In this document: piece by piece, positions 2,532 to 57,066 of the stretch
Layout: the number at the start of each line of letters is the position of its first letter
How positions within the stretch are numbered: position 1 is the stretch's first letter
Source: an uncultured Holophagales bacterium
GTDB lineage: Bacteria; Acidobacteriota; Thermoanaerobaculia; Multivoradales; UBA5704
NCBI GenBank assembly: GCA_963844885.1
Contig: CAWJQA010000008.1
Location: 250,039 to 314,038 of the forward strand
Direction: 5' to 3'
DNA length: 64,000 nucleotides
Notes under the pieces: model-generated
What the model saw: the letters and a program-made list of their open reading frames with translations, nothing else
Told to the model about the DNA's origin: nothing
Databases searched by the model: none
Position numbers and translations under genes: made by a program

Positions 2532-4787
2532 TCAGGGAGACCCGCCGGCAGGGATTTTGTTGAGGCCGTCGCCCTCCAGCACGAAGCCGGCCCAGTAGAA
2601 AGGCGCGCTCCAGCGCGGGTCGCGCCAGAGGGCGAGCTGGGCCTGCCGCAAGGCCTCCGCCGGCGGCAGGCCGGCGACGAGAAGCCCTTGATAGAAATTC
2701 TCCATGAGGACGGCCGTAGCCCGGTCGTCCACGCTCCAGAGGCTCATCACCACTCCCGACGCCCCCGCCGACAAAAAGGCGTGCGTCAGTCCCATCGGCG
2801 CTTCCCCCCTCAAGTCACGCCCGAGCGCCGTCTGGCAGGCGCTCAGGACGATCAGGTCGGTCGACAGGTTGAGCCCGCGGACGTCCTCGGCGGTCAGCCT
2901 CCCCTCCCGGTGCCGCCCGCGGCGGTCGAAGCGGGAGAGCAGAAGCGCCGAGCGCTCCGGGCGCTCCGCATCGAGCAGTCCGTGCGCGGCCAGGTGGGCA
3001 ACCGAGGAGCTGCCGAGCACCCCTTCCAAGACCAGGCTTCGAGCCGCCTCGAACCCGGTGGCGGAGGTGGCCTTCTCCCCGGGCAAGACGCTCCGGACGA
3101 GCCGCAGGATGTCCCGGACCTCCCTCCCGGCATCGGGGAGCCGCGGCAGCCGGCCGTCGGCATCGCCGAAACCCGGCGCCCCCTTCGGCAGCCGGTCGTC
3201 CGAGTCGCTGGAGACCGGATCGCCGATCAGTGTCAGCAGCCTCTCGGGCTTCCGGCGACCGGCGCGCCGGTCCCGCAGCCGCTTCAGCACCGAGGCCGAG
3301 GGGATACGGCTGACGGAATGCCCGGCGATCAGCGGCTCGGACCACGCCCGGCCTTCCGAAATGCCGGCGGGATCGGGCAGCGCCTCGAACGGGACGTAAT
3401 GCAGGATCTCCGGCGCGACGAGGAGCAGCCGCTTCCCCCGGATCCGGTCCGCCACGGGTCCGAGAAGCCGGACGGAGAGATCGGCGGCCATCCTCCTCGC
3501 CGCCGCGATCCCGCCCGGCCCGCGGGTGTGCTTCATCGCCTCGTAGAGCCTGCGGACGGCCGGTTCCAGGACACCGCGGCCGGGCAGCACAATGCAGCCG
3601 TGGCCGTCGCGCGCGACCCACCAGAGGACGCTCCGCTCCTCGCCCAGCGCGTACTCCAGGAGAACGGTCTCACCATCCAGCACGGCAGCCTGAATCTCTG
3701 GGAGCGAGAGCGCCCCGGCTCCCCCGAGATTGTCGGACAGGCTGCGGGCGCGCGACCGTTCGCTGACCTCCAGGGCCGCGGTGCCGTCACCGCTTTCCAT
3801 GAGGAGATCGACGAGGTATTCGTAATCCTCCTGCCGCGAGGCCTGATAGGACGCCTTGAGGAGATCGACCACGAAGCCTCCGCCGGTTCCCGGGCCGGTG
3901 TCGGAGCGGAGGGACTCCGCCACGCGCAGCGCGCGCTCGACGCGGTCGCGGGCGGCGATGCGGTTGCCGCGGCGGCGCTCGGCTCGGGCCATGCCGGAGT
4001 AGGCCGCGGCCTGCGCCTCCCGGTTGCCGGACGCGGCGGAAAGCTCCAGGGCCTTCTGGAAGGCGTCGATGGCCGGCAGGTTCTCCTTCTGAGCGAGGAG
4101 AAGCCAGCCCAGGTTGCTCCACACGGTGGCCTCTCCCGGAACGTCGCCGAGGGATTGGAAGATCCCGAGCGCCCGCCGGAACGACCGCGAGGCCTGGTCG
4201 AGCCGGCCGGCCTTCTGCCACGCCAGCCCCATGCCGTTCAAGGCCGCGGCCTCGCTCTCACCGGACTCCCTGGGTGGCGCCAGAGCGGCCCGGAACAGTT
4301 GCAGGGCGCGACGGGGGGCGCCGAGCCGGTAGTAGGTGTTGCCGAGCTGGGTGAGAACGGCGCCGCGGGCGGCGCGGTCGTCCGCGATCCGCAGAAGCGC
4401 GAGCGCCTGCGCGTAGGCTTCCAGGGCCCGGTTCAGCTCTCCCAGGGAGGTGTAGAGCGTACCCTGGTCGATGCGGACGATCGCCTGCCGGTGCAGGCTG
4501 TGGAGAGCCCCCCAGGCCTGGTAGGCGCGGCCGTAGCACTCCAGGGCCTCCCGGGCGTAGCCGCGGAGATGGTCGAGTTGGCACATCCGGTAGGCGCCGG
4601 CGATCCCCGACCCGTCCGGAGTCTGGATGTCGACGCCTTGCTGCTCGTGAGAGAGATGCAGAAGCCGGCCCTCCTTCAGGTTGAAAGCATGGACGTGGGC
4701 GGCGCGGGCGTGCGGCCAGAGCCTCAGCCCGACAAGGCAGAGCGTTGCGGCTCCCAGGAGGAGCCCGATAGGCCTCCAGCAGCGCAT
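2532..4787 (-). CDS. TPR repeat + CHAT (caspase-like protease) domain protein with N-terminal hydrophobic leader
   Basis: The ORF 2532..4862 has a probable start at ATG 4787 (MRCWRPIGLLLGAATLCLVGL). The central region is TPR-like. The C-terminal CHAT domain keeps His (VAHLAAHG) and Cys (LIVLSACQTALG) and ends APFYWAGFVLEG. Confidence 0.85.
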   Translation of the reverse strand: MRCWRPIGLLLGAATLCLVGLRLWPHARAAHVHAFNLKEGRLLHLSHEQQGVDIQTPDGSGIAGAYRMCQLDHLRGYAREALECYGRAYQAWGALHSLHRQAIVRIDQGTLYTSLGELNRALEAYAQALALLRIADDRAARGAVLTQLGNTYYRLGAPRRALQLFRAALAPPRESGESEAAALNGMGLAWQKAGRLDQASRSFRRALGIFQSLGDVPGEATVWSNLGWLLLAQKENLPAIDAFQKALELSAASGNREAQAAAYSGMARAERRRGNRIAARDRVERALRVAESLRSDTGPGTGGGFVVDLLKASYQASRQEDYEYLVDLLMESGDGTAALEVSERSRARSLSDNLGGAGALSLPEIQAAVLDGETVLLEYALGEERSVLWWVARDGHGCIVLPGRGVLEPAVRRLYEAMKHTRGPGGIAAARRMAADLSVRLLGPVADRIRGKRLLLVAPEILHYVPFEALPDPAGISEGRAWSEPLIAGHSVSRIPSASVLKRLRDRRAGRRKPERLLTLIGDPVSSDSDDRLPKGAPGFGDADGRLPRLPDAGREVRDILRLVRSVLPGEKATSATGFEAARSLVLEGVLGSSSVAHLAAHGLLDAERPERSALLLSRFDRRGRHREGRLTAEDVRGLNLSTDLIVLSACQTALGRDLRGEAPMGLTHAFLSAGASGVVMSLWSVDDRATAVLMENFYQGLLVAGLPPAEALRQAQLALWRDPRWSAPFYWAGFVLEGDGLNKIPAGGSP

Positions 4788-4923
4788 GGTTTCATTCGCG
4801 GGACCGCGGACCAGTGGAGAAAGAGTGTAGACGCCCGATCCCCCGGTCCGAAAGCACGGCAAATGTTCATAGATACAGAAGACGAAGGATCATCTTCCCC
4901 GGCCGGACCGGCCGAGCCCGGGG

Positions 4924-5202
4924 CTACCCGAAGATCTGCCGTCGCAGCTCGCGCCAGGAGGCGGCGGTGTCCAGGCCGCCGTCTTCCGGGAGGGGTTCCA
5001 GGAAGCGCTCGAGCCCCAGCAGCAGGTCCGGACAGTCGAAGCAGACGCCGAGATGGAGGCACACCCGGGCGTCGCGGCGCGCGGAGAGGCGGTCGTCCCG
5101 GTAGGCGGTCAGCTCCTCGGGAGACGGGTGCCAGCCGGCGCCGGGACGGAGACGGGTCTCGCGATGGAAGTGGCGGAGGGCGCGGGCGAGGGTGTCCGTC
5201 AT
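4924..5202 (-). CDS. putative zinc-finger (zf-HC2 type) anti-sigma factor, soluble, 92 aa
   Basis: It lies 28 nt downstream of the ECF sigma gene on the same strand. It has an H-x3-C-x2-C motif (CLHLGVCFDC) and no transmembrane segment. Confidence 0.6.
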   Translation of the reverse strand: MTDTLARALRHFHRETRLRPGAGWHPSPEELTAYRDDRLSARRDARVCLHLGVCFDCPDLLLGLERFLEPLPEDGGLDTAASWRELRRQIFG

Positions 5203-5230
5203 GGCCGCCCCTTGCGGAGGCTGGCCCCGC

Positions 5231-5836
5231 TCAGTCCTCCGGTTCCGCCAGCTCGAGCTTCAGCCGCTTCCTGGCCTGGAACAGGTGGGCCTTCACGGTG
5301 TCGATGGAGATCTTCATCAGCACCGCGATCTCTTTGTACTTGCGCCCCTGGTCGTAGCGCAGGAGGAAGCAGGTGCGCATCTGGTCGGGCAGCGCCTGGA
5401 TGGCCTGGCTGAGGGCGATGGAGCGCTCCCGCTCCAGCACGTCGTCCAGGGCTCTGGGCTCGGAGGGCGGCGGCTCGTAACCGGCCGGCTTGCCCTCCTC
5501 GTCCTTCCCGCCGGTCTCGAGGGAGATCTCCCATCCTTTGCGCTTGCCAGCCCCCCGCCTGCGCAGCTCGTTCTGGTAGACGTGATCCGCGATCTCGAAC
5601 AGCCAGGTCTTGAAACCGGATTCGAGGCGGAACGAAGCGATACCTCTGAAGACCCTCAAAAACACGTCTTGTGTGAGGTCGCGGGCGTCCTCGGGGGAGA
5701 AGCCTCTCTGCTGGAAAAAGTTGCGCACACGGCGGTCGTGCAGCTCGAACAGCCGCCCGAAGTCGGCCTCGACACCGGTCCCGGCCTGGATCAGCTCGAC
5801 AAGGCGCCGGCTGGGATCGTCGTCGGGGAGGGACAT
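5231..5836 (-). CDS. RNA polymerase ECF-type sigma-70 factor
   Basis: Region 2 (DLTQDVFLRVFRG...WLFEIADHVYQNELRRR) and region 4 (CFLLRYDQGRKYKEIAVLMKISIDTVKAHLFQARKRLK) are recognisable. The start is ATG 5836 with AAGGGA upstream. Confidence 0.9.
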   Translation of the reverse strand: MSLPDDDPSRRLVELIQAGTGVEADFGRLFELHDRRVRNFFQQRGFSPEDARDLTQDVFLRVFRGIASFRLESGFKTWLFEIADHVYQNELRRRGAGKRKGWEISLETGGKDEEGKPAGYEPPPSEPRALDDVLERERSIALSQAIQALPDQMRTCFLLRYDQGRKYKEIAVLMKISIDTVKAHLFQARKRLKLELAEPED

Positions 5837-37497: not shown

Positions 37498-40154
<2,657 letters not shown>

Positions 40155-40973: not shown

Positions 40974-41909
40974 TCAGGATGGGCTGACGCCTTGCAGGCC
41001 CTTCCGGACGGCCGTGGCGAAGGCCTGCGACTGGTCCGGACTGAAGGATGAGAAGTTCCAGAGCCATCCGCCCCCGGCGTTCGGGTTCGCCTGGCCGAAC
41101 GGCGCATAGGCAGATTGGACCTGATCGGCGGAATCGCCCTGGGAGATCTGCATGCCGGACGACACGAACCCGGCGAGGTTCGACACGCCGATCGCCTTGC
41201 CCGTGAGGGCTTGCACGAAGCCGGCGTTGTCCGCCGGATAGAGCCCGCCTCCTTGCAGATTCACCCAGGCTACCTGCTGCGTGCCGCCGGCATACGTCTT
41301 TTCGAGCAGGTCCGCCCAGAAACCGTAGCTCTCGTACGGCGCGATCGTCGTCAATCCACCGTGGCTTTGCATCCAGCCCGCGAGGGTGGTCAACGTGTCC
41401 ATGAACTCGGAATAGGATGCCGAGAACCCTCCCTGGCACAAACCGGCGTCCGCATAGACCTCCAGGTCGATGTCGACACCGTTGACCGGGTAGGCCGCGA
41501 AAATGGCGGACAGGTTCTGAAAGAACGGGTTGTCTGCCGGACTCGGGTACTGCGCGATCAAGTTTTTCAGATGCAGGAAGTCCCAATAGCCGATGGCCTG
41601 GCCGCTGAAACACCCGCCGCCACCGAAAGAGAGGAGGATATTCTTCACCGTGCCGGTTTTCATCTGTCGAAGGACAGCCGCCAGGTTCGGATCGAGATCC
41701 GTCGAGATCACACCTCCCGAGGCCATGGTGGTGTCGTTGTAGTTGATGCCGCCGTCGGCGCTGATATGCAGCGAGGCGAGGATGACGGTGTCAAAACCCG
41801 CCGCTCCCAAGAGCTTGCCTGTCGCGGCAATCGTCTGTTGCTGGGCGGGTGTCGGGTTTGCGGTATCGAAGGGACCGAGGGCGTAGATTCCCACATTCTG
41901 CGCGGCCAT
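40974..41909 (-). CDS. GH18-like (class III chitinase/narbonin-like) TIM-barrel protein, no signal peptide
   Basis: NGVDIDLE matches the GH18 D-x-x-D-x-D-x-E catalytic motif. LLSFGGGG strand motif is present. 311 aa. AGGAG lies 10 nt before the ATG. Confidence 0.55.
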   Translation of the reverse strand: MAAQNVGIYALGPFDTANPTPAQQQTIAATGKLLGAAGFDTVILASLHISADGGINYNDTTMASGGVISTDLDPNLAAVLRQMKTGTVKNILLSFGGGGCFSGQAIGYWDFLHLKNLIAQYPSPADNPFFQNLSAIFAAYPVNGVDIDLEVYADAGLCQGGFSASYSEFMDTLTTLAGWMQSHGGLTTIAPYESYGFWADLLEKTYAGGTQQVAWVNLQGGGLYPADNAGFVQALTGKAIGVSNLAGFVSSGMQISQGDSADQVQSAYAPFGQANPNAGGGWLWNFSSFSPDQSQAFATAVRKGLQGVSPS

Positions 41910-41996: not shown

Positions 41997-42392
41997 TTAC
42001 GACTGCGGTTTGGCCTTGCAGATCAGGCACTCGCAGACCGACATCTTGTTCGGCACGGTCGTCCACCACTGGCCATCCCAGGTGCCGTTGGCGGTCTGGC
42101 AGACGCCCGGGCACTTGGCTTCGGCATCCTGCTGGTTCCAGAGCGGCCCGGCATCGATGGCATAGGCGGGAGCGAGGCATTCGCAGACCGACATCTTTCC
42201 CCACACGGTGGTCCACCACTGGCCGTCCCACGAGCCCCAGCCGGCGCCGCACGTCTTCGGACACTTGACCTCGGCGTCGTGCTGGTTCCAGATCGGCCCG
42301 GCATCGACGACACAAGACTTCCCTTGCGCGAGCCCGGCATTGGCGAAGGCGACGAGCATCAGCACGGCCAACAGCATGACGGTTTTCTTCAT
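41997..42392 (-). CDS. exported tandem MVL-like (mannan-binding lectin) domain protein, Cys-rich
   Basis: AAGGAG lies before ATG 42392. Signal peptide MKKTVMLLAVLMLVAFANAGLA. There are two repeats of DAGP(I/L)WNQ.DAE.KCP..C...G.WDGQWWTTV..KMSVCEC. The GPLW and GQW-TT-MSV motifs are those of Microcystis viridis lectin. Confidence 0.65.
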   Translation of the reverse strand: MKKTVMLLAVLMLVAFANAGLAQGKSCVVDAGPIWNQHDAEVKCPKTCGAGWGSWDGQWWTTVWGKMSVCECLAPAYAIDAGPLWNQQDAEAKCPGVCQTANGTWDGQWWTTVPNKMSVCECLICKAKPQS

Positions 42393-42593
42393 TTGCAGTC
42401 TCCTTGGTCGAAGCACTTGGATTGTGTTTGACGGACCGGTCGCTCCGATCCGCCGGGAGAGGGCTGGAGCGCCCCCGGATCTGTGTGCAAAGGAGATGTG
42501 CCCCGGCCCGCCGGTTTATCTCACCCGAGTTTTTCCGTCCGTCCTTTTCCCGGGTCAGTGCTATCCTCAGCACACTCAACCGCGGGAGCCGGA

Positions 42594-45500
42594 ATGCGCA
42601 CTCGGAGCCTCTGCATCGCATGGCAGGCGGTCGCCCTTCTCACCCCCGGCGCGGTCGCCATGCCTCCGCAAGTCCTCGGGACCGGAGCCGCGGTCGAGCG
42701 ACCGCTGGCGGGAGGAGAGAGGCACGTCTATCGCATCGAGCGCATCGAGCGCATCGAGCGCATCGAGGTAAAGCCCGGTGCCCGGCTGCTGGTGACGGTC
42801 GACCAGCGAGGTATCGATGTCGTCTTGGAGGTGCGGCAGCCGGACGGCAAGACTCTGATCGCGGTGGACAGCCCGACGGACAGCGAAGGTCCGGAATCCG
42901 CCTTGCTCCCTGAAGAGGCATCGGGTGCGCTGGAGATCCGAGTGCTGTCGCCGAGCCCGGGAGTCGCGCCGGGAACCTATGAGATCCGCCTGGACGAGCT
43001 CGCGGAGACGACTCCCGCCGAGCGCGAGCGCGTCGAGGCCGAGCGGCTGATGACCGAAGCGGCGGCGCGCAACCGCGAGGGCGGCTCGGAGGGCAAGCGG
43101 CTCGCCGCCGTCCGTTACGAGGAGGCTCTCCTCCACTGGCGCGCGCTGGGCCGCGGGCGCGATGAGGCCCGGTGCCGGCTCGCGCTGGGCGGGATCGACA
43201 CCGCCCTCGGCCAGCCGAAACCGGCGCTGGAGCACTATCAACAGGCGCTCGATCAGCTCGTGGAGCTGGCCGACGAGCCGGGGCAGGCGGCGGCCTGGAG
43301 CGGCATCGGTCTCGCCCGGACCGCCTCGGGGGATACGGCCGGCGCCGCCGAGGCGCAGCGCCGGGCGCTCGCTCTCGAACGGCGCCTCGGACGCCTCACC
43401 GAGGAGGCCAAGGCGCTCAACAACCTCGGCTTCGCCCTGCACATGCAGGGCGACCTGCGCCCGGCCCTGGGGTTCTACCAGCAGGCGCTCGATGCCTTCG
43501 AAAGGGCCGGGGAACAGGGGTTCTGGAAGGCGAACGTGCTGCACAACCTGGCGGGGGTCTACATCGGCCTGGGCGAGCCCGACGCGGCGCTGGCGAGCCA
43601 CCGGCAGGTTCTCGAGCTGCAGCGTGCGCTGGGCGACCGGAGAGGCGAGGCGCGGACGCTCCACAATCTGGGGGTCCTCTACGGCAACCTCGGCGAGTTC
43701 GGCCAGGCTCTCGCGGCCTACACGCCGGCCCTCGCGCTCTTCCGCCAGTCCGGCGACCGGCTGTGGGAAGCCGCGCTCCTGCACAGCCGGGGTGTGGCCT
43801 ACTACGGGTTGGGTGACTTCGAGCGCGCGCTCGCCGACCTGGAGCAGGCATTGGCGATCCGCCGCGAGGCGGGCGACCAGAGGGGTGAGGTGATGACCGA
43901 GATCAGCATCGGCCACACGCGCCTTCGCTCCGGGCAGATCGCCCAGGCTCTCGACTTCGGCCGCCGGGCCGCCAGTATGGCCGCCGCCGCCGCCAACCGC
44001 CGGGGGGAGATGTTCGCGCGCCTGCTGGTGGCCCAGGCGGACGTCGCCGCCGACGCGCCGGAGGCGGCTCTCGCCGAGCTGGTCCCGGCTCTCGGCCTCG
44101 CCCGCCTCCTGGAGGACCGGGTCGGCGAAGCCTCGATCCTGCGGCTCACGGGAGAGGCATACCTGGCTTCACGGCAACCGGAAAAGGCCGCCCAGGTGCT
44201 GGGCGAGGCGGTCGACCTCGCCCGCGCCGTCGAGTCTCCACCCCTGATCATCGAAGCGCTGACGGCCCTCGCCCGCGCCGAGAGAAGGCTGGACAAGCCG
44301 GAGGAAGCCCGCTCGCGGGTCGAAGAGGCCCTCCTCCTGGTCGAGACCCTGCGCACCCTGGAGACGGACCCGGACCTGCGGGCTTCCTTCCTGGCGGCGC
44401 AGCGGGCCGCGTTCGAGCTCGAGATCGACCTGCTGATGGGGCTCGACCGGCGGCAGCCCGGTCAGGGACATGCGGAGGCCGCGCTCGAGGTCAGCGAGCG
44501 CGCCCATGCCCGCTCTCTCCTCGACCTGTTGCAGGAGGCGCGCGCCGACATCCGCGAAGGGGTCGATCCACGGCTGCGCGACCGCGAGCGCGGCCTCCTC
44601 GCGCGTCTGAATGCCAAGGCCGGCCAGCAGGCCGAGCTGCTGAGCCGCCCCGTGACCGCGGAGCGCCGGCGGGCGGCCGAAGGCGAGATCCGGGCGGTGC
44701 TCGACGAGCTCGCCGAGGCCGAAGCCGAGATCCGCAAGAGCAGCCCGCGATACGCCGCGCTCACCCGGCCGTCCCCGGCCACGAGCGCCGAGATCCGGGG
44801 CCTGCTCGACGGCGAAAGCCTGCTCCTCGAATACTCGCTCGGCGAGGAGCGGAGCTTCCTCTGGGCGGTCGATGCGGGCTCCGTGACGGGCTTCGAGCTA
44901 CCGTCGCGCGCGCGGATCGAAGCGGCTGCCCGCGCGGTCTCCGGCCGCCTGGCCGTCCTCGCGCCGGGAGACGATCAGCTCGAGCCGGCCGCCGAAACGC
45001 TGAGCCGGATGCTGCTCGGACCGGTCGCCGGGAGGCTCGGGACGCGGCGCCTGATCATCGTACCCGACGGCGCTCTGCAGTACATACCCTTCGGAGCGCT
45101 GCCGGTCCCGGATGCCGGCGGCTTCACTCCCCTGCTCACTCGGCACGAGATCGTCGACGCTCCCTCGGCCTCCGCCATCGCCTTGCAGAGACGGCTTACC
45201 CGAAAGACATCGGTGACCGGAGACGTAGCCGTGTTGGCCGATCCGGTCTTCGCGCCCGACGATCCCCGGGTGACCCCGGGAGCCGGGGCGAGGGCCGCGG
45301 CCGGCTCGGGGTCACGGTCCGCGGTGCCCTATCCTTCCTCTTCCTTCCTCCGGCTGCCCTGGACCCGTCGCGAGGCCGAAGCGATCGCCGCGGTCGCCGA
45401 GGTCGCCGCGATCGGGCCCGCGGGCCGGCCTCTCCTGGCGCTCGACTTCAAGGCCAGCCGCGCGACCGCCCTGTCGCCGGACCTGGCCGGTTACCGCATC

Positions 45501-45962
45501 GTCCACTTCGCGACCCATGGCATCATCGATGCCCAAACCCCCGCCCTGTCCGGGTTGATGCTCTCGCGCGTCGGCGAGCACGGCGAGCCGCTGGACGGCT
45601 TTCTGGGACTGCGCGACATCTACAACCTGCGGCTCGGGGCCGATCTGGTGGTGCTCTCCGGATGCGAAACGGCGCTGGGCAAGGAGGTGCGGGGCGAAGG
45701 CCTGGTGGGGTTGACGCAGGGCTTCCTCTACGCCGGCGCCAGGCAGGTGGTGGCGAGCCTCTGGCGGATCGAGGACCGGACCACGGCGGAGCTGATGTCG
45801 CGCTTCTACCGCGGCCTCCTGGTCGAGGGCCGGCCGCCGGCCGCGGCCCTGCGGCTGGCCCAGCTCGCCATCCGGGACGACCGGCGATGGCGGTCCCCCT
45901 ACTATTGGAGCGGATTCGTGCTGCAAGGCGAGTGGGCCGGCTTCGAAGGCGGCCTGAGATAG
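42594..45962 (+). CDS. exported TPR + CHAT (caspase-like protease) domain protein with N-terminal beta-rich domain
   Basis: ATG 42594 with GGGAG upstream. Signal peptide MRTRSLCIAWQAVALLTPGAVA. There is a long TPR block. The C-terminal CHAT domain has His (IVHFATHG) and Cys (LVVLSGCETALG) and ends SPYYWSGFVLQGEW. Confidence 0.85.
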   Translation: MRTRSLCIAWQAVALLTPGAVAMPPQVLGTGAAVERPLAGGERHVYRIERIERIERIEVKPGARLLVTVDQRGIDVVLEVRQPDGKTLIAVDSPTDSEGPESALLPEEASGALEIRVLSPSPGVAPGTYEIRLDELAETTPAERERVEAERLMTEAAARNREGGSEGKRLAAVRYEEALLHWRALGRGRDEARCRLALGGIDTALGQPKPALEHYQQALDQLVELADEPGQAAAWSGIGLARTASGDTAGAAEAQRRALALERRLGRLTEEAKALNNLGFALHMQGDLRPALGFYQQALDAFERAGEQGFWKANVLHNLAGVYIGLGEPDAALASHRQVLELQRALGDRRGEARTLHNLGVLYGNLGEFGQALAAYTPALALFRQSGDRLWEAALLHSRGVAYYGLGDFERALADLEQALAIRREAGDQRGEVMTEISIGHTRLRSGQIAQALDFGRRAASMAAAAANRRGEMFARLLVAQADVAADAPEAALAELVPALGLARLLEDRVGEASILRLTGEAYLASRQPEKAAQVLGEAVDLARAVESPPLIIEALTALARAERRLDKPEEARSRVEEALLLVETLRTLETDPDLRASFLAAQRAAFELEIDLLMGLDRRQPGQGHAEAALEVSERAHARSLLDLLQEARADIREGVDPRLRDRERGLLARLNAKAGQQAELLSRPVTAERRRAAEGEIRAVLDELAEAEAEIRKSSPRYAALTRPSPATSAEIRGLLDGESLLLEYSLGEERSFLWAVDAGSVTGFELPSRARIEAAARAVSGRLAVLAPGDDQLEPAAETLSRMLLGPVAGRLGTRRLIIVPDGALQYIPFGALPVPDAGGFTPLLTRHEIVDAPSASAIALQRRLTRKTSVTGDVAVLADPVFAPDDPRVTPGAGARAAAGSGSRSAVPYPSSSFLRLPWTRREAEAIAAVAEVAAIGPAGRPLLALDFKASRATALSPDLAGYRIVHFATHGIIDAQTPALSGLMLSRVGEHGEPLDGFLGLRDIYNLRLGADLVVLSGCETALGKEVRGEGLVGLTQGFLYAGARQVVASLWRIEDRTTAELMSRFYRGLLVEGRPPAAALRLAQLAIRDDRRWRSPYYWSGFVLQGEWAGFEGGLR

Positions 45963-46034
45963 ACGTGGCCTCCGCGGCACTTGAGTGGGTGACGCCGGCA
46001 TCCCGCCGCGTCTTCGCAGGAGAGGAGATCCAAA

Positions 46035-46472
46035 ATGACAACCATTGACCAGTTCGCCATTCCCGAGGGGTGGAAAATCATAAGTTGGGATGTCCCCTCC
46101 GAGCCCTTGGGTCCAATCCCGTCGGATGGCTTCGCCGTGGGGGGGACTCTGCTGATTGGGGTCTCAGCGAATCAATCCCCGGCCTGCGATCTCGCCTGGC
46201 TGAATTCAGAGAGCAAGCAGTGCTCCATGACCAACCTCCCTTTCCTCGACAACAAGCTGAATGGCAGCGTGCGGGTGAGCTTCGGGGGAGTGATCGTCCC
46301 TTGTATCGCGACGCTCTCTCTCGAGGACGATGTGCTCACAGGTGTGTTCACCGTGGTCTTGGGCGACGGCAACACCGGCACCTTCGTTGCCGACGCGAAC
46401 CCACCGCGAGCGGACAGGCCGTCGAAGCGAACCCGGGCTGAGGAGTTGGAGCTTGTCTCGACGCGGGAGTGA
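46035..46472 (+). CDS. hypothetical protein (145 aa) between CHAT and ECF sigma genes
   Basis: A strong GGAGAGGAG lies before the ATG. The composition looks like real protein and the stretch is visibly less GC-rich than its neighbours. No family recognised. Confidence 0.6.
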   Translation: MTTIDQFAIPEGWKIISWDVPSEPLGPIPSDGFAVGGTLLIGVSANQSPACDLAWLNSESKQCSMTNLPFLDNKLNGSVRVSFGGVIVPCIATLSLEDDVLTGVFTVVLGDGNTGTFVADANPPRADRPSKRTRAEELELVSTRE

Positions 46473-46516
46473 CGGCGGTCTTGCGGTATCATGCTCCCTC
46501 TGCAATCCGAGGGAGC

Positions 46517-47119
46517 ATGAACGAAGCCGGCGTGTCTCAAGGGGAGCCCGATCCGATCGTGGACCTGGTCCGCCGCATCGTCTCCGGGGAGCCGGCGGCG
46601 GAGGCGGAGCTGGTCCAGCGCTTCAGCCGGGCTCTGTCGTTTCTGTTGCGGCGGCTGACGCGGGACGAGGCCGCGGCGGAGGATCTGTATCAGGAGACCT
46701 TCCGGCTGGTGATCGAGAAAGTGCGGCGAGGGGAGCTGCGCGAGCCGGAGAGGCTGCCGGGCTTCGTGAGCAGTCTGGCGCGCAACCTGTTCCTCGGCTC
46801 GGCCCGGCGCGGCGGCCGGCGCCAACAGTGGCACGGCGACTTCGAGGCGATCGAGACCGCACCCGATCCCGCCCCCGGGCAGCTCGCAAAGCTTCTCACC
46901 CAGGAACGGGCGGCGGCCGTCCGGCACGTGCTGGCGGAGCTCAAGAACGACCGCGACCGCGAGATCCTCTCGCGCTACTACATCGCGGGCGAAGACAAAG
47001 AGGCCATCTGCCACGACCTCGGGCTCTCCGACCTGCACTTCAACCGCGTGCTGTTCCGTGCCCGCCAGCGCTACAAGGAGCTGTTTGAAAGACGGCAGGG
47101 TGACCGCCATGGATCATAG
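46517..47119 (+). CDS. RNA polymerase ECF-type sigma-70 factor
   Basis: Region 2 (EDLYQETFRLVIEKV...LPGFVSSLARNLF) and region 4 (EILSRYYIAGEDKEAICHDLGLSDLHFNRVLFRARQRYKELF). The alternative GTG start at 46469 overlaps the upstream stop (GTGA). Confidence 0.9.
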   Translation: MNEAGVSQGEPDPIVDLVRRIVSGEPAAEAELVQRFSRALSFLLRRLTRDEAAAEDLYQETFRLVIEKVRRGELREPERLPGFVSSLARNLFLGSARRGGRRQQWHGDFEAIETAPDPAPGQLAKLLTQERAAAVRHVLAELKNDRDREILSRYYIAGEDKEAICHDLGLSDLHFNRVLFRARQRYKELFERRQGDRHGS

Positions 47120-47960
47120 CTACGCCGAAGAGCACGACCTTGTCGAATCCTACCTCGCCGGCCGGCTGAGCGAGAGCGAGCGGGACGCGTTCGAGGCCCA
47201 CTATTTCGCCTGTGAGACGTGCCTCGAGCACCTGGAGACCGCGGAAGGTTTCCGGGAGGGGATGCTCCAGGCCGCGGCCGAGGACGTCGCCGCCGCCGCC
47301 GCGGTGCGCGTCCGAGTCGGCCTGCTCGCCCGTATCGCCGGCATTGCCGCGTTGTCGCGCCGGCATCGGCTTGCGCTGGCGGGCGCCCTTCTGCTGCTCG
47401 CGGCGCTCCCCGCCTTCTGGCTGGCCGGCCGCAACCGCGGCCTCGAACGGCAACTGGCCACCGTCTCCACCGGGGCCGAGCGCGAGCGCGCCGCTCTCGC
47501 GGCCCGGCTCCACACCGTGGAGCAGGCCGGGGCCGCCGATCGCCGTCGGCTCACCGAGGAGTTGGATCAGATGCGCCAGGCGCGCGAAAAGACGGCCGCC
47601 GCCCATCCGGAGGTGAACGTCCCGATCTTCCTGCTCGCCGCGGTGCGCGGCGGGGAGGGAGCCGACAGAGAGCCGGTGAACCAGATCCCGCTCGCCGCCA
47701 CAACCGGCTCGGTCATCCTCACCTTCGAGCTCGCCACGATCGACTACCCCGCCTACCACGCCTCCCTGCTCAGCGCGGACGGCAAAGAGATCTGGCGGAC
47801 GGGCGGCCTGCATCCGGACAGCCGGGACACGCTGGTCCTCCTTCTGCCGGCTAGCATGCTTCAGCCCGGCGTCTACCGGTTGACGATCGAAGGCGCGCAA
47901 AGCGGCGGCAAAGGGTCTGCCGTCGCGGCCTGTCCGTTCCGGGTGGTGCGGCGTCCGTAG
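47109..47960 (+). CDS. membrane-anchored zinc-finger (zf-HC2 type) anti-sigma factor
   Basis: The start overlaps the sigma gene by 11 nt. H-x3-C-x2-C motif (HYFACETC). One transmembrane helix (LALAGALLLLAALPAFWLAG). About 170 aa lie outside the membrane. Confidence 0.75.
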   Translation: MDHSYAEEHDLVESYLAGRLSESERDAFEAHYFACETCLEHLETAEGFREGMLQAAAEDVAAAAAVRVRVGLLARIAGIAALSRRHRLALAGALLLLAALPAFWLAGRNRGLERQLATVSTGAERERAALAARLHTVEQAGAADRRRLTEELDQMRQAREKTAAAHPEVNVPIFLLAAVRGGEGADREPVNQIPLAATTGSVILTFELATIDYPAYHASLLSADGKEIWRTGGLHPDSRDTLVLLLPASMLQPGVYRLTIEGAQSGGKGSAVAACPFRVVRRP

Positions 47961-47984: not shown

Positions 47985-48425
47985 CGGCCACCGGATCGAG
48001 GGAACGTGGCTTTCCCTCCATTCGGCGAGCCGCCGGATCGGGGGAAAGAGCCTTTCCCTCCTTCCGGGAAGTCGCCGGAAGGAGGGAAAGAGGCTTTCCC
48101 TCCTTCCGGGAAGCCGCCGGATCGAGGGAAAGAGGCTTTCCCTCCTTCCGGGGAGCCGCCGGATCGGGGGAAAGAGGCTTTCCCTCCTTTCCGGGAGCCG
48201 CCGGATCGGGGGAAAGAGGCTTTCCCTCCTTTCCGGGAGCCGCCGGATCGGGGGAAAGAGGCTTTCCCTCCTTCCGGGATGCCGCCGGATCGAGGGAAAG
48301 AGGCTTTCCCTCCTTTCCGGGAGCCGCCGGATCGGGGGAAAGAGGCTTTCCCTCCTTCCGGGGAGCCGCCGGATCGGGGGAAAGAGGCTTTCCCTCCTTC
48401 CGGGGAGCCGCCGGTCGCGGGAACA
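47985..48425. repeat. 42-bp tandem repeat, about 10.5 copies, each unit with an internal hairpin
   Basis: CCGGATCG (or a variant) starts at 47991 and then every 42 bp up to 48411. The unit is CCGGATCGGGGGAAAGAGGCTTTCCCTCCTTCCGGGGAGCCG and contains GGGAAAG-AGG-CTTTCCC. Confidence 0.9.
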
Positions 48426-48477: not shown

Positions 48478-48792
48478 CTACCCTCCCGATCCTATTTGGA
48501 CTTCAGTGGCGCCGTTTCCACAAAGCCGGATCTCGGCTTGTATGAAAACACGCCACGAAGACAACCGTGTCCTTGACGATTCATAAAACAGGCCGTACGA
48601 AAACCGCCGAACGAGAGCTCTCCGTGTCTGGCGCAAGACGATCGGGTACGTCGCAGGCATATCCTGGACGGATTGCGCGGTCGCCCTCACTTCGGCCAGA
48701 AACTCCTCACCGAGCCCTTTCCGTTCCTTTTCGTACCACCCATAGGCACGATCGATATCCGCCGCGGCTGCAGGCCGATAGATGACCTTCAC
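48478..48792 (-). pseudogene. ParE/RelE-family toxin, one frameshift as sequenced
   Basis: GTG start. KVIYRPAAAADIDRAYGWYEK...RRFSYGLFY, then the expected C-terminus VKDTVVFVACFHTSRDPALWKRRH appears in another frame (stop at 48503-48505). Confidence 0.7.
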
Positions 48793-49012
48793 CGGGCATG
48801 CGCCCGCGCCTGGGCGGTGACCTCGTCCAGGAAAGCCCCGTCGGGCCCTCGACCTCCAACTCGTCGAGCCGGCGGTCCAGCTCCTCTCTCTGGGCGTTCG
48901 TCATGGGCAATGCATCAGGATCCTGGCCCAGACTCGCCCAAAGCCGGTCAAGAAGGTCAAGCTTTTCGTCACTGCTCAGTCGTGCGATGTCGAGAGCGGC
49001 TGTTTGTCCCAT
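48789..49012 (-). pseudogene. putative addiction-module antitoxin, one frameshift as sequenced
   Basis: MGQTAALDIARLSSDEKLDLLDRLWASLG...AQREELDRRLDELE. The expected ending WDEVTAQARAHAR-stop, which forms a GTGA overlap with the toxin start, is restored by adding one G to the run TGG(G)AC. Confidence 0.6.
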
Positions 49013-49280: not shown

Positions 49281-52200
49281 TCAGACCCGCCGTTCGCCAG
49301 TCCGGAAGCGCCAGGCCGCGGCGGCGGCGAGCAGCAGCGCCAGGAGCATGGCGCCCCACTCGGAAACCGTCGGGATGTCGGGCACTCCGATCACCGTCAC
49401 TACGTCCACCGTGGGATCGTCCGACGGAGTGGTTGCGGGGTTGTCGGACACCACGTCCGGGAAGTTGCTCCCGGTGACGGTCGCCTGGTTGACGACCGTG
49501 GTGACGCCGGACGGGAAGGGGTTGTCGAGCTTGACGGTGAAGTTCACCGTCGCCTGCCCCGTCGTGGCCACCAGGGTACCGAGGTTGACCGCGACGCTGG
49601 TCGCCCCCGGCAGGTTGCCGACGGTCACCGTACCCTGCGTGGTGGTCACCGAGCCGGCGACCAGGGTGGAGTGGGCTCCCGGCGTATCGGTCAGGATCAC
49701 AGCCAGGGCATCGGCGTTGCCGGTGTTGGCGATGTGGATCGAGTAAGCGAGCGTGTCACCCGGCGAGAGAACGCCGTTCCCGTCGAGGTCGTTGGTGGTC
49801 ACCACGAAGCTGCTCGACTTGACCGCCTTCACCAGCGGTGCCGTCTGATTGACCGTCAACGTATCGCTGCCCGTATTGCCGGTTCCGCCGTTGGTCGAGG
49901 TCACGTTACCCGTCGTGTTCGCCTTCGAGCCGCTGGTCGTCGCCGTGACGTCGACCGTCACCGTGCAAGTGCCGCTCGCCGCGACCGTGCCGCCCGAGAA
50001 GCTCACGGACGTGTTGCCGGCCGCCGGTGCGAACGTCGGCGAGCCGCAACCCGAGGTCGAGACGTTCGGAGTCGCTGCCACCTGCAAGCCCGCCGGGAAC
50101 GAGTCCGTGAACGCGACACCGGTCAGCGCCGTGCCCGTGTTCGGATTCGTGATCGTAAAGGTCAGCGTGCTCACTCCGCCGACCGCGATCGGATTCGGAG
50201 AGAACGCCTTCGCGATGCTCGGCGGTGAAATCACCGTCAACGTATCGGTACCCGTGTTGCCGGTGCCGCCGTTGGTCGAGGTGACGTTGCCCGTCGTGTT
50301 CACCTTGGCACCAGCGGTCGTGGCGGTGATATCGACAGTCACCGTGCAGGTGCCGCTCGCCGCGACCGTACCGCCCGAGAAGCTCACCGACGTATTGCCA
50401 GCGGCCGGTGCGAAGGTCGGAGAACCGCAGCCGGTCGTGGTGACGTTCGGAGTCGCCGCCACCGCCATGCCTGCCGGGAACGAGTCGGTGAAGGCCACGC
50501 CCGTGAGGGCGAAGCCGGAGTTGGGATTCGTCACCGTGAACGTAAGCGTGCTCACGCCACCGACGACGATGGGGTTGGGAGAGAACGCCTTGCTGATGCC
50601 CGGCGCGGTGCCGACCGTCAGCGTATCGCTGCCCGTATTGCCGGTTCCGCCGTTGGTCGAGGTCACGTTACCCGTCGTGTTCGCCTTCGAGCCGCTGGTC
50701 GTCGCCGTGACGTCGACCGTCACCGTGCAGGTGCCGCTCGCCGCGACCGTGCCGCCCGAGAAGCTCACGGATGTGTTTCCGGCCGCCGGTGCGAACGTCG
50801 GCGAGCCGCAGCCCGAGGTCGAGACGTTCGGAGTCGCTGCCACCTGCAAGCCCGCCGGGAACGAGTCCGTGAACGCGACACCGGTCAGTGCCGTACCCGT
50901 GTTCGGGTTCGTGATCGTAAAGGTCAGCGTGCTCACTCCTCCGACCGCGATCGGATTCGGAGAGAACGCCTTGGCGATGCTTGGCGGTGAGACCACCGTC
51001 AGAGTGGAAGTGCCGGTGCCGCCGGTTCCGCCGGTGGTCGAAGTGACGTTGCCCGTGGTGTTCACCTTGGCCCCAGCGGTCGTGGCGGTGACATCGACAG
51101 TCACCGTGCAGGTGCCGCTCGCCGCGACCGTACCGCCCGAGAAGCTCACCGACGTATTGCCAGCGGCCGGTGCGAACGTCGGAGAGCCGCAGCCGGTCGT
51201 GGTGACGTTCGGAGTCGCCGCCACCGCCATGCCTGCCGGGAACGTGTCGGTGAAAGCGACGCCCGTAAGGGCAAAGCCGGAGTTGGGATTCGTCACGATG
51301 AACGTAAGCGTGCTCACGCCACCGACGACGATGGGGTTGGGAGAGAACGCCTTGCTGATGCCCGGCGCGGTGCCGACCGTGAGCGTATCGCTGCCCGTAT
51401 TGCCGGTTCCGCCGTTGGTCGAGGTCACGTTACCCGTCGTGTTCGCCTTCGAGCCGCTGGTCGTCGCCGTGACGTCGACCGTCACCGTACAGGTGCCGCT
51501 CGCCGCGATCGTGCCGCCCGAGAAGCTCACCGACGTGTTGCCGGCCGCCGGTGCGAACGTCGGCGAGCCGCAACCCGACGTCGAAGCGCTCGGAGTCGCA
51601 GCCACTTCAAGGCCGGCCGGGAACGAGTCCGTGAACGCGACACCGGTCAGCGCCGTGCCCGCGTTCGGATTCGTGATCGTAAAGGTCAGCGTGCTCACCC
51701 CGCCGACCGCGATCGGATTCGGCGAAAACGCCTTCGCGATGCTCGGCGGCGAAACCACCGACAACGTATCCGTACCCGTATTGCCGGTTCCGCCGTTGGT
51801 CGAGGTCACGTTACCCGTCGTATTCACCTTCGAGCCGCTGGTCGTGGCCGTGACGTTGACCGTCACCGTGCAGGTGCCGCTCGCCGCGATCGTGCCGCCC
51901 GAGAAGCTCACCGACGTATTGCCGGCCGCCGGTGCGAACGTCGGCGAGCCGCAACCCGACGTCGAAGCGCTCGGAGTCGCCGCCACCTCGAGGCCGGCCG
52001 GGAACGAGTCCGTGAACGCGACGCCGGTCAGCGCCGTCCCCGCGTTCGGATTCGTGATCGTAAAGGTCAGCGTGCTCACTCCGCCGACCGCGATCGGATT
52101 CGGAGAGAACGCCTTCGCGAGGCTCGGCGGCGAAACCACCGACAACGTATCCGTACCCGTATTGCCGGTTCCGCCGTTGGTCGAGGTCACGTTACCCGTC

Positions 52201-55200: not shown

Positions 55201-57066
55201 ATATAGACGCGAACATGCGTGGTGCCATTCGGGAGCGCGAGAGGACCGAACGAGCTGAAGGCGGTCGTCGAGAGCGGCAGCGCCGTGGAGTTCGCGGCGT
55301 AGACGACGGTGCCCGGATCGGTGGCGGGCCCATTGCCCGCGGTGGCGTCGGTGGCCAGGGAGCTCGTCGCCGCGTAGACGGCGATGCCCTGCGGACTGTT
55401 GGGCGTATTCTTGCGCGCCGCGTCGAAGGCGACCTCGAGGCCGGTATAGCCCGTCATGTCGACGGCAAACTCGAGGTAATCCTCGTTGGCGGAGACCAGC
55501 GTGGCGCCCGTAGTGATGCTGCCGTTCGAGCCCCAGGAGTCGGTACCGGCGGTGAAAGCGGCGGCACTGATGCCGTCACCCGGTTTGGCCGACGGCGTAC
55601 CGGTCACGTTGTCCACGGCCGGCGCCGGCGAGGCGACCGTAAAGCCGGTCGGGAAGGTCCACTGCGCCAGGGTGAAACCGCAGACCAGCGGCGGCGGCGG
55701 CGGCGCGCTGTTGACGGTCAGCGTATCGGTCGCGAACTTCCCCGTATCGATGCCGGCGGCGAAAAGATGGTTCGAAGTGTTGGTGTAGGTGCCGGTCGCG
55801 GGCACGGTCACGTTCACCTTCACCGTGCAACTGCTGTTGGCCGCCACCGTGCCGTTCGAAAACGAGATCGAGCCCGCCCCCGCCACCGGCGCGAACGTCG
55901 CGGCGCCACAGCCGTTGGTGGTGGCGCCCGGCGCACTGGCGACCACCATCGCTCCCGGCGAGGTCGGGAACACGTCCGAGAAGCTCACTCCCGAGACCGC
56001 CGCCGCATTGGGATTGGTGATCGTGAACGTGAGCGCGGAGACGCCGTTGACGTTGGTGGGATCGGGGCTGAAATTCTTGGCGATCGTGAGCGTCGTGGGA
56101 TCGACGACCACCGCGAAGCGCGTCGAGGTACCGAAGTCGTCGTTGTAGTGATAGCTGCTGCCCGAGAAGTCGTACAGCAGGCTGCTGAGCGGCTCGGGAT
56201 TGACCAGCGGCGCGCCCGGGACCTGCAGGATCTTGACAACGTAGGTGACGACGACACCGCCGCCGACCTTGCCCACGTCCCGGCAGGAGCGGTAGTAGGG
56301 GCTGTTCGGATCGTTGTCCCACTTGCAGGCATCGCCGTACAGCTTGTCGTTCGGATTGCTCACGTACACCGACGTGTCGGCGGTGTATGTGGTGGACACC
56401 GACTGCACCTGGAAGATCGTGTTGGGAAAGTTGATGAAGCTTTCGAGCTGCTCGTAGCCGTTGGTGGCCGTCGAGCCGACGAGGTCGATGGTGTAGGTCT
56501 GACCGACCAGGAGCGTCATCGTCCCGCGCGTTGGGGATCGAGGTGCCGTTGAGCTTGACGTCGAGGATGTGGTTGCGCGACTGGGAGATGAGGTGCTCGA
56601 CGTAAAGGTCCCGCGGGGCCGGCGTGCTCACGGTCCCGAGCGTGTCGGCGGTGGTAGTGATGTGGTAGCGGCGGGTCGTGTCGTACGCGGCCGGGTTCCG
56701 CGTCACCTCGACCTCGTAGTAGAAGTCGTGGCAGGCAGCGGGCGCGAGGCTCGGCACCGGGCTGGCGTTGAAGTCGGAGAGCGTCCCGGGCCGCAGGTTG
56801 ACCAGGGCGTTGGCCGAGTCCCAGACGAACGCCGAGGTGACGTTGGTGGCGGCGGCGTCGCCGGTGTTGCAGACGCGGGCGCCTACGGGGAAGTGGTTCG
56901 GCCCGGCGTTGACGTCGTTGCTGTCCAGCCCGATGACGTTCCAGGTGATCGGGCTGATGGAGAGGCTGGCGACGGCGAAGGCCGGCGACTGGCCGAACAA
57001 TAGCGCCGCGGCCAGGGTCAGGCCGCAGAGCAGGTTTCTGCGAGGGAACGCGATCCGGTCGAGCAT
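49281..57066 (-). pseudogene. giant surface protein: signal peptide, about 17 DUF11-type beta-sandwich repeats, IPTL-CTERM-type sorting tail; one frameshift as sequenced
   Basis: The N-terminal ORF starts at ATG 57066 (MLDRIAFPRRNLLCGLTLAAALLFGQSPAFA). It joins the 2412-aa ORF 49281..56519 across one extra C near 56525 (LNGTSIPNA|GTMTLLVGQTY). The repeat signature is KAFSPNPIAVGGVSTLTFTITNPNAGTALTGVAFTDSFPAG. The C-terminus is IPTVSEWGAMLLALLLAAAAAWRFR. Confidence 0.85.
49855..53665. repeat. about ten near-identical 381-bp (127-aa) tandem repeats inside the adhesin gene
   Basis: The marker GTCA(A/G)CGTATCG recurs at 49855, 50236 and 50617 (period 381). The protein shows about 10 consecutive near-identical units. 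Confidence 0.85.

Follow-up and report, generated by a model that had tools for sequence, protein, structure and literature searches.

Among the described cases of regulated intramembrane proteolysis (RIP) of anti-sigma factors, the classical ones are RseA with DegS and RseP, and RsiW with PrsW (PMC11506125). In Myxococcus xanthus, the protein DdvA unites in a single chain a zinc anti-sigma domain, a membrane helix and a periplasmic TPR-CHAT region, and its partner is DdvS, a sigma factor of the extracytoplasmic function (ECF) type (PMC11506125, PMC6061681). DdvA is stable as long as it has its TPR-CHAT part, and its degradation once that part is gone depends on RseP; self-cleavage was not seen (PMC11506125), and DdvA-like fusions have been reported only in Myxococcota and one Comamonas (PMC11506125, PMC6061681). 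Here we describe a locus at positions 42594-47960 of a 64,000-nucleotide stretch of DNA from an uncultured Holophagales bacterium (contig CAWJQA010000008.1; the whole stretch is called the window below), in which four co-directional plus-strand genes encode an exported TPR-CHAT protein, a protein of 145 amino acids (aa), an ECF sigma factor and a membrane anti-sigma factor. Of the known systems DdvA-DdvS comes closest, and the present module is a split version of that sensor. An earlier note on this DNA, which had proposed that the exported protease acts on the anti-sigma factor, knew of no experimentally characterised example of a CRISPR-independent CHAT-ECF switch; DdvA-DdvS is in fact a characterised relative, and CHAT cleavage has been proposed there.

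Gene content and conservation of the module

The components of the module are given below. Their coordinates agree with the earlier description of four plus-strand genes with a gap of 72 nucleotides (nt) between the CHAT gene and the small open reading frame (ORF) and an 11-nt sigma/anti-sigma overlap, and the profile searches that had been suggested matched the CHAT, TPR, Sigma70_r2 and zf-HC2 families.

42594..45962 (+): TPR-CHAT protein, 1122 aa, ATG start, TAG stop at 45960-45962, in an ORF that opens at GTG 42483; signal peptide 1-22, beta-rich domain ~35-150, TPR ~190-620, CHAT 798-1113
45516-45518: codon of His975, catalytic candidate in the CHAT domain
45663-45665: codon of Cys1024, catalytic candidate in the CHAT domain
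46035..46472 (+): small protein, 145 aa, no signal peptide, predicted 8-stranded up-and-down beta-barrel
46517..47119 (+): ECF sigma factor, 200 aa, ATG start
47109..47960 (+): anti-sigma factor, 283 aa, ATG start, overlapping the sigma stop (47119) by 11 nt

The DNA of the window is GC-rich (~64-73% GC) and the nearest relatives of its proteins have source names from Thermoanaerobaculia/Acidobacteriota; the host is a soil-type acidobacterium and the four-gene unit is conserved. Our survey of this conservation is based on an alignment of sigma relatives, with one genome per species, that provided 80 loci, to which four more were added via the small protein. The six-frame ORFs of these loci (cited by numbers such as L001) were scored against the window proteins, and the 84 loci contain 85 sigma copies. 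A TPR-CHAT gene lies within 10 kb of 75 of the 85, and 70 of these are directly adjacent and co-oriented. The order is CHAT – sigma – anti-sigma for 62/85 sigma copies and sigma – anti-sigma – CHAT for 8/85; for 5/85 the CHAT gene is elsewhere within 10 kb, and the remaining 10/85, several of them on short contigs, have no CHAT within that distance. The neighbourhood comparison that the earlier note had proposed thus speaks for the linkage, and the association of CHAT, sigma and anti-sigma is not accidental. The full arrangement is present in each of the 29 orthologous loci (66-89% sigma identity).

The hosts of the module are mostly Thermoanaerobaculia with a few Gammaproteobacteria; they include a Lysobacterales metagenome-assembled genome (MAG), a gammaproteobacterial MAG and the isolate Thalassomonas sp. 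RHCl1 (L078). The gammaproteobacterial versions (L070, L076 and L078) have kept the exported beta-domain–TPR–CHAT protein as well as the outside domain of the anti-sigma and have lost HxxxCxxC, and in L078 there is no small ORF between CHAT and sigma. Since the flanking genes vary between loci, the module moves as a unit.

Median identities to the window sequence, across the orthologous loci, are 80% for sigma, 72% for the CHAT domain, 59% for the N-terminal domain of the CHAT protein, and 59% for the whole anti-sigma protein, with 64% for its outside (C-terminal) domain and 53% for its linker. The small protein diverges fastest, having a median identity of 34% as against 80% for sigma.

Architecture and topology of the protein components

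The CHAT domain of the window protein matches PF12770 with E=1.2e-65 (222 bits against a cut-off of 24), and the repeats match TPR_12 (E=7.5e-44) along with many other TPR families of Pfam. The signal peptide reads MRTRSLCIAWQAVALLTPGAVA, with the predicted cleavage before MP. Sec-type signal peptides, recognised by a basic stretch, a hydrophobic stretch and a small-residue cleavage pattern, are present in 57/60 complete CHAT relatives. In 77-78 of 78 related CHAT domains, His975 (HFATHG) and Cys1024 (LSGCET; LSGCxT in the relatives) are invariant. A signal peptide and a caspase-like His/Cys dyad had both been read from the window protein alone, with misassignment of the dyad named as the danger that an alignment might reveal; the relatives bear out the two features, and both HFATHG and LSGCxT hold. 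Judged by this alignment the dyad is intact and under selection, and by profile score and conserved dyad the CHAT protein is a member of the caspase-fold peptidase family, with a predicted peptidase activity. With a profile built from the CHAT domains, the Cys region aligns to the LMGCSSA segment of separase chains (E=0.026), which we take to be their catalytic-Cys segment; the catalytic His is presumably that of the HG pair, by analogy with caspases and separases. When PDB sequences were searched, the full-length CHAT protein found TPR proteins only, the CHAT domain alone found nothing and the CHAT profile found separase weakly; no link to the solved DdvA, DdvS or Csx29 structures surfaced in these sequence and profile searches. 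The N-terminal beta-rich domain is conserved and has a weak match to PPC (E=0.11). Within this domain, positions 42732-42767 form a perfect 9-nt tandem repeat (CGCATCGAG x4) that is in frame and encodes RIERIERIERIE. The close orthologue L001 has RIEA alone at this place, so the window gene has undergone a recent in-frame expansion.

The sigma factor is small and has no sigma regions other than 2 and 4, as is characteristic of the ECF class (group 4). It matches Sigma70_r2 of Pfam (E=1.6e-8) and TIGR02937 (57 bits against a cut-off of 42.9, residues 44-203). The Pfam region-4 models give no match at E<0.01, and its region 4 is therefore divergent. More than 120 clusters of relatives at an identity of at least 79% have source names from Thermoanaerobaculia. 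No NCBIfam sigma subfamily reaches its cut-off with the window sigma, and an ECF group taken from the literature had to be given up, the main text of PMC7826278 never mentioning CHAT and describing no comparable protease-linked or Acidobacteria-specific group. As for the alternative GTG start that the earlier note had placed over the stop of the small ORF, the overlap exists (GTG 46469), but the sigma start is most likely ATG 46517, because the relatives begin with MNE or something similar and gene calls give 200 aa.

The anti-sigma factor has the features of a class I zinc-binding anti-sigma (ZAS) factor, namely an N-terminal HxxxCxxC domain and a gene next to that of sigma, and it is predicted to inhibit the latter. 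It matches zf-HC2 of Pfam with 26.1 bits (cut-off 22.2). The HxxxCxxC occupies residues 31-38, a single membrane helix spans residues ~88-106 and ~177 residues lie beyond it, in good agreement with the H-x3-C-x2-C, one helix and roughly 170 outside residues that had been noted before. This outside part consists of a helix-prone linker and a beta-rich domain of ~95 aa. Among the relatives, the HxxxCxxC is at residue 31 in 82/86 and one membrane helix is near residue 84 in 81/86, with ~180 residues outside the membrane; among PDB sequences the protein has no relative. Because sigma has to be bound by the zinc domain on the cytoplasmic side, the C-terminal part is periplasmic. By their predicted topologies, the CHAT protein and this C-terminal part are thus on the same side of the membrane and share one compartment, the periplasm, just as had been supposed.

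A small, predicted beta-barrel protein that accompanies CHAT

The 145-aa protein has no match in Pfam, NCBIfam or PADLOC, and it had initially been taken for an orphan. It is nothing of the kind: an exhaustive profile search of 1.84 billion proteins yielded a family of 104 representative clusters (family A), as compared with just 3-10 relatives by word-seeded searches, and the gene follows CHAT wherever it was detected. The ORF starts 72 nt past CHAT, is preceded by a strong Shine-Dalgarno sequence (GGAGAGGAG) and encodes neither a hydrophobic N-terminal segment nor a signal peptide. Conserved in the family are W18, W55 and the C-terminal GNTGTFvAxA, which forms the last strand of the model. 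With 81 sequences, AlphaFold2 predicts an 8-stranded barrel (pLDDT 91.2, pTM 0.78); a prediction from 9 sequences was too weak (pLDDT 62). Of the best 50 PDB folds listed, almost all are FABP/lipocalin barrels, at TM scores of ~0.45-0.5, and none is at E<1e-3.

Across loci, CHAT and sigma are almost always separated by 480-1010 nt and, by iterative search, a family A relative fills this gap in 26/29 orthologous loci. In loci with the order sigma – anti-sigma – CHAT (L043, L055, L061 and L071) the small ORF is located after CHAT. It is hence directly downstream of CHAT in both gene orders, wherever detected, and so accompanies the protease gene and not the sigma gene. A second small-protein family (family B) occupies the post-CHAT slot of 16-18 paralogous loci (within L047-L084; for example L056 9292-9873 and L075 9257-9829). 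It has a conserved C-terminal TWVAxEGG, and many of its members have a glycine-rich hydrophobic segment of ~45 residues. A homology between the two families was rejected (hhalign probability 1%), as they have merely a short similar C-terminal motif in common.

The small protein is a conserved fourth component of the unit and most likely a partner of the protease. What kind of partner is a matter for speculation. Staphostatin genes lie directly after staphopain genes, and the position, size and fold class of the barrel protein, together with its missing signal peptide, are why we have considered that it might, by analogy, be a cytoplasmic inhibitor in the staphostatin manner.

A promoter-like motif and its candidate targets

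On aligning the regions upstream of CHAT, a bipartite motif, TGAGATA-N14-GGCAC, was found. Spacings of 13, 14 and 15 nt were all scanned with at most one mismatch, and 80/81 matches have the 14-nt spacing. On a position weight matrix (PWM) the 64-kb window contains two matches of at least 12 bits, as against none in 10 shuffles. They are listed here with the two other predicted control elements of the locus.

42498..42523 (-): motif copy pointing at a divergent lectin gene; PWM 38.6 bits
42558..42567 (+): GTGCTATCCT, extended -10-like element, ~36 nt 5' of the CHAT start codon
45955..45980 (+): motif copy overlapping the CHAT stop and ending 54 nt 5' of the small ORF; PWM 33 bits
46490..46519 (+): hairpin with a 12-bp stem, arms CATGCTCCCTC and GAGGGAGCATG, RNAfold prediction

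The plus-strand copy has the same position in most orthologous loci, and the divergent arrangement of the window recurs in L001, L003, L012, L015 and L019. The minus-strand copy ends 81 nt before GTG 42416 and, by coordinate arithmetic, 105 nt before ATG 42392, the lectin start implied by a 131-aa gene call in L001. The direction in which the motif is to be read was judged from the distance to the next credible ORF (at least 90 aa, with a GC content at third codon positions, GC3, of at least 0.68). Read as TGAGATA-N14-GGCAC, 67/77 copies have such an ORF within 130 nt and the distances peak at 53-57 nt; in the opposite orientation the count is 39/77 with a flat distribution, and for random positions it is 197/400. 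The reverse reading, GTGCC-N14-TATCTCA as an autoregulatory promoter into CHAT with antisense copies, was abandoned because these statistics favour the other strand.

The CHAT gene therefore lies between two outward-facing copies of the motif, neither of which precedes it. The motif stands before the barrel–sigma–anti-sigma genes and not before CHAT, so the four genes are probably not a single sigma-dependent transcription unit. For CHAT, the GTGCTATCCT element may provide a housekeeping-type promoter: a GTG[C/A/T]TA core is present ~35-53 nt 5' of the CHAT start in 21/23 orthologous loci (consensus GTGCTAyCCT). ECF sigma factors are typically autoregulated. As TGAGATA-N14-GGCAC is confined to the modules and their neighbours, it is probably the promoter used by the module's sigma factor.

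The hairpin in the list would pair both the Shine-Dalgarno sequence and the ATG start codon of sigma, and stems equivalent to it, in which both arms have base changes, are found in L005, L006, L008, L012, L017 and L032. The folding prediction suggests a translational damping of sigma. Seven orthologous loci (L007, L009, L013, L019, L022, L024 and L033) have an extra motif copy 17-23 nt before the sigma start (~9946-9983). The window-type hairpin is absent from these loci, and in L007, L009 and L013 the sigma start codon after the extra copy is TTG.

The candidate target genes, in the window and behind the motif in other loci, are as follows.

41997-42416 (-): secreted MVL-type mannan-binding lectin (MVL E=1e-26)
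40974-41909 (-): GH18-like protein (Glyco_hydro_18, weak, E=0.0077)
L010: ricin-type lectin
L031: MACPF protein and GH18/EndoS-like protein
L022: ETX/MTX2 protein
L033: aegerolysin
L012: VapA-like protein
L007: S74-chaperone fibre protein
Other loci: weak GDPD-like and HBL-like proteins, a cupin, DUF1842 and several unknown small proteins

From the genes found behind the motif, the module appears to turn on neighbouring lectin and pore-forming-toxin genes. A GH18-like protein behind the motif in L015 is similar by eye and has no Pfam match.

A decayed second cassette

A second cassette with the same parts had been reported at 2.5-5.8 kb of the window. Its components (cassette 1) are the following.

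2532..5836 (-): cassette 1, order sigma, anti-sigma, CHAT
5231-5836 (-): ECF sigma factor
4924-5202 (-): anti-sigma remnant, 92 aa, with HxxxCxxC and no membrane helix
2532-4787 (-): exported TPR-CHAT protein, 751 aa, without the N-terminal beta domain

The families are indeed the same (the CHAT domain scores 213 bits with PF12770, cut-off 24), but sameness of parts goes no further: the gene order differs, the anti-sigma and CHAT are both truncated, and cassette 1 has neither a small ORF nor a copy of the motif. Its CHAT protein is without ~200 N-terminal residues that L086 and L088 have, and in its relatives L085 and L092 the anti-sigma is a full-length membrane protein, its outside domain being of the same kind; both truncations are present in L090. 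We also considered that cassette 1 might be a frameshifted DdvA-like fusion, but a real stop, a 136-nt spacer of lower GC and a CHAT gene in another frame separate the two parts, and they are two genes in the relatives. Cassette 1 thus belongs, in decayed form, to this broad system. It supports a common ancestry of the association and not the argument from a shared compartment, because its anti-sigma cannot reach the periplasm.

Proposed mechanism and alternatives

The reading that we put forward, tentatively, as quite a plausible one is that of a conserved modular ECF unit in which an exported TPR-CHAT sensor protease switches the sigma factor via the anti-sigma, and sigma transcribes the genes that have the motif. 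CHAT would be made from its own promoter and sit in the periplasm as a sensor protease. On a cue, it would cut the outside part of the anti-sigma (linker plus beta domain) or lift a block on it. Going by ECF biology and the DdvA model, this site-1 step would be followed by RseP-type intramembrane proteolysis and the release of sigma. The free sigma factor would then use TGAGATA-N14-GGCAC to transcribe the barrel–sigma–anti-sigma operon (autoregulation) as well as the adjacent, locus-specific cargo. This cargo would comprise the mannan-binding lectin and the GH18-like protein in the window, and ricin-type lectin, MACPF, aegerolysin, ETX/MTX2 and EndoS-like proteins in the relatives. That CHAT cleaves the anti-sigma factor is something that we infer from the shared compartment, the invariant dyad, the fact that CHAT stays while the cargo varies, and the precedent of the DdvA fusion.

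Several observations do not sit easily with this mechanism. In the alignment of relatives, no conserved cleavage motif is evident in the poorly conserved anti-sigma linker, and CHAT-mediated cleavage is proposed and not demonstrated even for DdvA (PMC11506125). Between 7 and 10 paralogous sigma/anti-sigma pairs have no CHAT within 10 kb, so either CHAT is not obligatory or it acts from elsewhere in the genome, and cassette 1 retains sigma and CHAT though the outside part of its anti-sigma is lost. The barrel protein has no signal peptide and therefore cannot meet mature CHAT in the periplasm; furthermore, staphostatins are absent among the best 50 PDB fold matches listed, none of which is at E<1e-3. 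Finally, the motif is unlike the usual GGAAC/CGTC promoters of ECF sigma factors, and in the paralogous loci L034, L058, L062, L076 and L082 it lies between sigma and anti-sigma and points at the latter, where it could be a feedback on the inhibitor.

A more ambitious version of the mechanism, and in our opinion a somewhat unlikely one, is that of a periplasmic caspase-like cascade which senses an outside threat (a grazer, a fungus or a competitor) and, via a dedicated ECF sigma with the unusual promoter TGAGATA-N14-GGCAC, deploys an arsenal of lectins and pore-forming toxins that differs by locus (MVL, ricin-B, MACPF, aegerolysin, ETX/MTX2 and EndoS-like). The fast-diverging barrel protein would then be either a new class of intracellular CHAT inhibitor or a feedback regulator, and the whole would be a CRISPR- and phage-independent counterpart of DdvA and Craspase.

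Alternatively, CHAT and the barrel could be a secreted protease/inhibitor pair that serves as weaponry, merely co-located with a sigma/anti-sigma pair that senses independently, whether redox via its zinc or envelope damage via the outside domain of the anti-sigma. The neighbouring genes do encode exported lectins and pore-forming toxins, the barrel gene directly follows the protease gene in a manner analogous to staphostatin after staphopain, the anti-sigma carries a ZAS-type HxxxCxxC, and some sigma/anti-sigma paralogues are without a nearby CHAT. We nevertheless regard such an independent pair as unlikely, since CHAT is the one partner retained while the cargo differs by locus, the sigma-type motif precedes cargo genes but not CHAT, and the linkage persists through changes of gene order and across phyla. 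Moreover, the gammaproteobacterial versions keep CHAT in spite of having no zinc motif, and the same parts are fused in DdvA (PMC11506125).

CHAT might also be a sensor that does not cut the anti-sigma at all: it would bind the outside domain via its TPR or N-terminal domain and let go on meeting a ligand, or else its cleavage target would be CHAT itself or a third periplasmic protein, the fragment being the true signal. TPR arrays serve to bind proteins, and the outside domain of the anti-sigma is better conserved than the linker (64% vs 53%), as expected of a docking surface. In DdvA, CHAT is seen in a resting state and is proposed to be a steric block on RseP (PMC11506125). However, the invariance of the His/Cys dyad argues for catalysis and nothing points to a third substrate, and we rate this explanation as unlikely.

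A still less probable scheme makes the barrel a substrate of CHAT or a co-regulator of sigma, analogous to Csx30, with CHAT acting in the cytoplasm before export or without it. The TPR-CHAT protein Csx29 does cleave Csx30 to control an ECF sigma (PMC10028731), and the sigma operon starts with the barrel gene, which comes directly after CHAT wherever detected. It is the clear Sec signal peptides of the CHAT relatives that make this scheme so doubtful, along with the finding that, in the model, the barrel's conserved C-terminal motif forms a strand and not a free tail, and the lack of a demonstrable relationship between small-protein families A and B (hhalign probability 1%). As to the adjacency being accidental or an annotation artefact, this can virtually be dismissed, the survey having already refuted it (TPR-CHAT within 10 kb of 75/85 sigma copies, in several gene orders and phyla).

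Genomic context

The four-gene module is chromosomal. DnaJ and ClpB-like genes are found on its left flank, and its right flank comprises a 42-nt tandem array, a ParE/antitoxin pair, a 2412-aa surface protein and cytochrome oxidase genes. The ClpB-like chaperone at 37498-39795 appears to be in pieces (Clp_N and AAA at 37498-39120, AAA_2 at 39352-39795), which could reflect frameshifts, assembly errors or a pseudogene. The tandem repeat at 47987-48423 begins 27 nt past the anti-sigma stop and has 10.4 copies (91% matches); it is open-framed on both strands, and L001 has a 166-aa gene call at the matching position. Just past it, at 48478-49012 (-), is the pair formed by a ParE toxin (E=3.4e-6) and an Unstab_antitox antitoxin (E=1.8e-11). 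The giant repetitive surface protein of 2412 aa, at 49281-56519 (-), has 13 DUF7933 repeats, DUF11, DUF7507 and a weak IPTL-CTERM sorting signal, and the strand opposite its gene bears a long spurious ORF.

From 42.4 to 48.6 kb the only repeats are simple tandem arrays that have no spacers, and they are not CRISPR arrays. There are no cas genes among the genes annotated at 34.5-59.9 kb, a span in which not every ORF is annotated; the annotated neighbours of the module are the lectin, GH18-like, toxin-antitoxin, adhesin, DnaJ and ClpB genes. PADLOC matched no family in the seven proteins of the module and cassette 1 except for a generic TPR model, and an identity with a known defence system was accordingly set aside.

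Significance and comparison with known systems

Even in DdvA, the one membrane system that has been studied, the way in which CHAT might control an ECF sigma factor is so far a proposal. The split module puts the enzyme and its presumed substrate in two proteins, so that cleavage in trans is simple to test, with Cys1024Ala as the control, and a cultured host of the module exists in the isolate Thalassomonas sp. RHCl1 (L078). The predicted promoter motif lends itself to use as a reporter and makes it possible to deduce the regulon from genome sequence. Beyond the known CHAT-ECF theme, the module has a fourth component as well as a candidate promoter and regulon. These CHAT genes are accompanied by an uncharacterised family, that of the small barrel protein, and the cargo found so far suggests an on-demand use of lectins and pore-forming toxins by these little-known Acidobacteriota of soil. 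Were the threat-sensing reading true, these Acidobacteriota would have a widespread counterpart of DdvA and Craspase signalling.

Full-text searches of the literature did not turn up any split, exported TPR-CHAT protein described together with an ECF sigma/anti-sigma pair, but several known systems share some of its features. The pair formed by staphopain and its staphostatin inhibitor (PMC10254297) resembles CHAT and the barrel in that a small 8-stranded barrel without a signal peptide is encoded right after an exported cysteine protease. It differs in that the staphopain is papain-like whereas the protease here is caspase-like, there is no detectable sequence match or close fold match to the barrel, and the inhibition by the barrel is putative. 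The ECF54 group of Actinobacteria (PMC8999054) likewise has CHAT proteins in a conserved neighbourhood and a proposed proteolytic control. However, ECF54 is without an anti-sigma and has carboxypeptidase and subtilase neighbours, whereas the present module has a canonical membrane anti-sigma.

With classical RIP the module has in common a single-pass anti-sigma, whose outside part would be removed by a site-1 protease before the site-2 cut, and, presumably, an autoregulated sigma operon; the candidate site-1 enzyme, however, is a caspase-fold CHAT protein of the same module and not a serine protease or metalloprotease. In the type III-E Craspase (Csx29, Csx30 and RpoE; PMC10028731), a TPR-CHAT protease is again linked genetically with an ECF-type sigma, and switching is by proteolysis. 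Csx29 is, however, cytoplasmic, Cas7-11-bound and RNA-activated, while the protease here is exported, and instead of a cytoplasmic TPR-CHAT with Cas7-11 and a CRISPR array we find a signal peptide and other neighbours.

The comparison with DdvA-DdvS is the closest. The single polypeptide of DdvA has no equivalent in our material, CHAT and anti-sigma being separate genes in all 84 loci and in both cassettes of the window: the TPR-CHAT protein here carries a signal peptide and an additional beta domain at its N-terminus, the anti-sigma comes with a small outside domain of its own, and a fourth gene, that of the barrel protein, belongs to the unit. The cargo consists of lectins and pore-forming-toxin-like genes and not of CRISPR or cyclic-oligonucleotide-based antiphage signalling systems (CBASS), and the hosts are mainly Thermoanaerobaculia. 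DdvA-type proteins are further marked by a dimeric, arrow-shaped periplasmic domain and by a CHAT domain without the three-helix motif. In both systems, nevertheless, an ECF sigma is held by an anti-sigma with an N-terminal zinc domain and one membrane helix, a TPR-CHAT region with a His/Cys dyad is on the periplasmic side, the proposed logic has CHAT as the site-1 step before RseP, and many copies per genome stand beside variable, defence-type cargo. That DdvA fuses the same two parts argues for a physical and functional link between CHAT and the anti-sigma factor.

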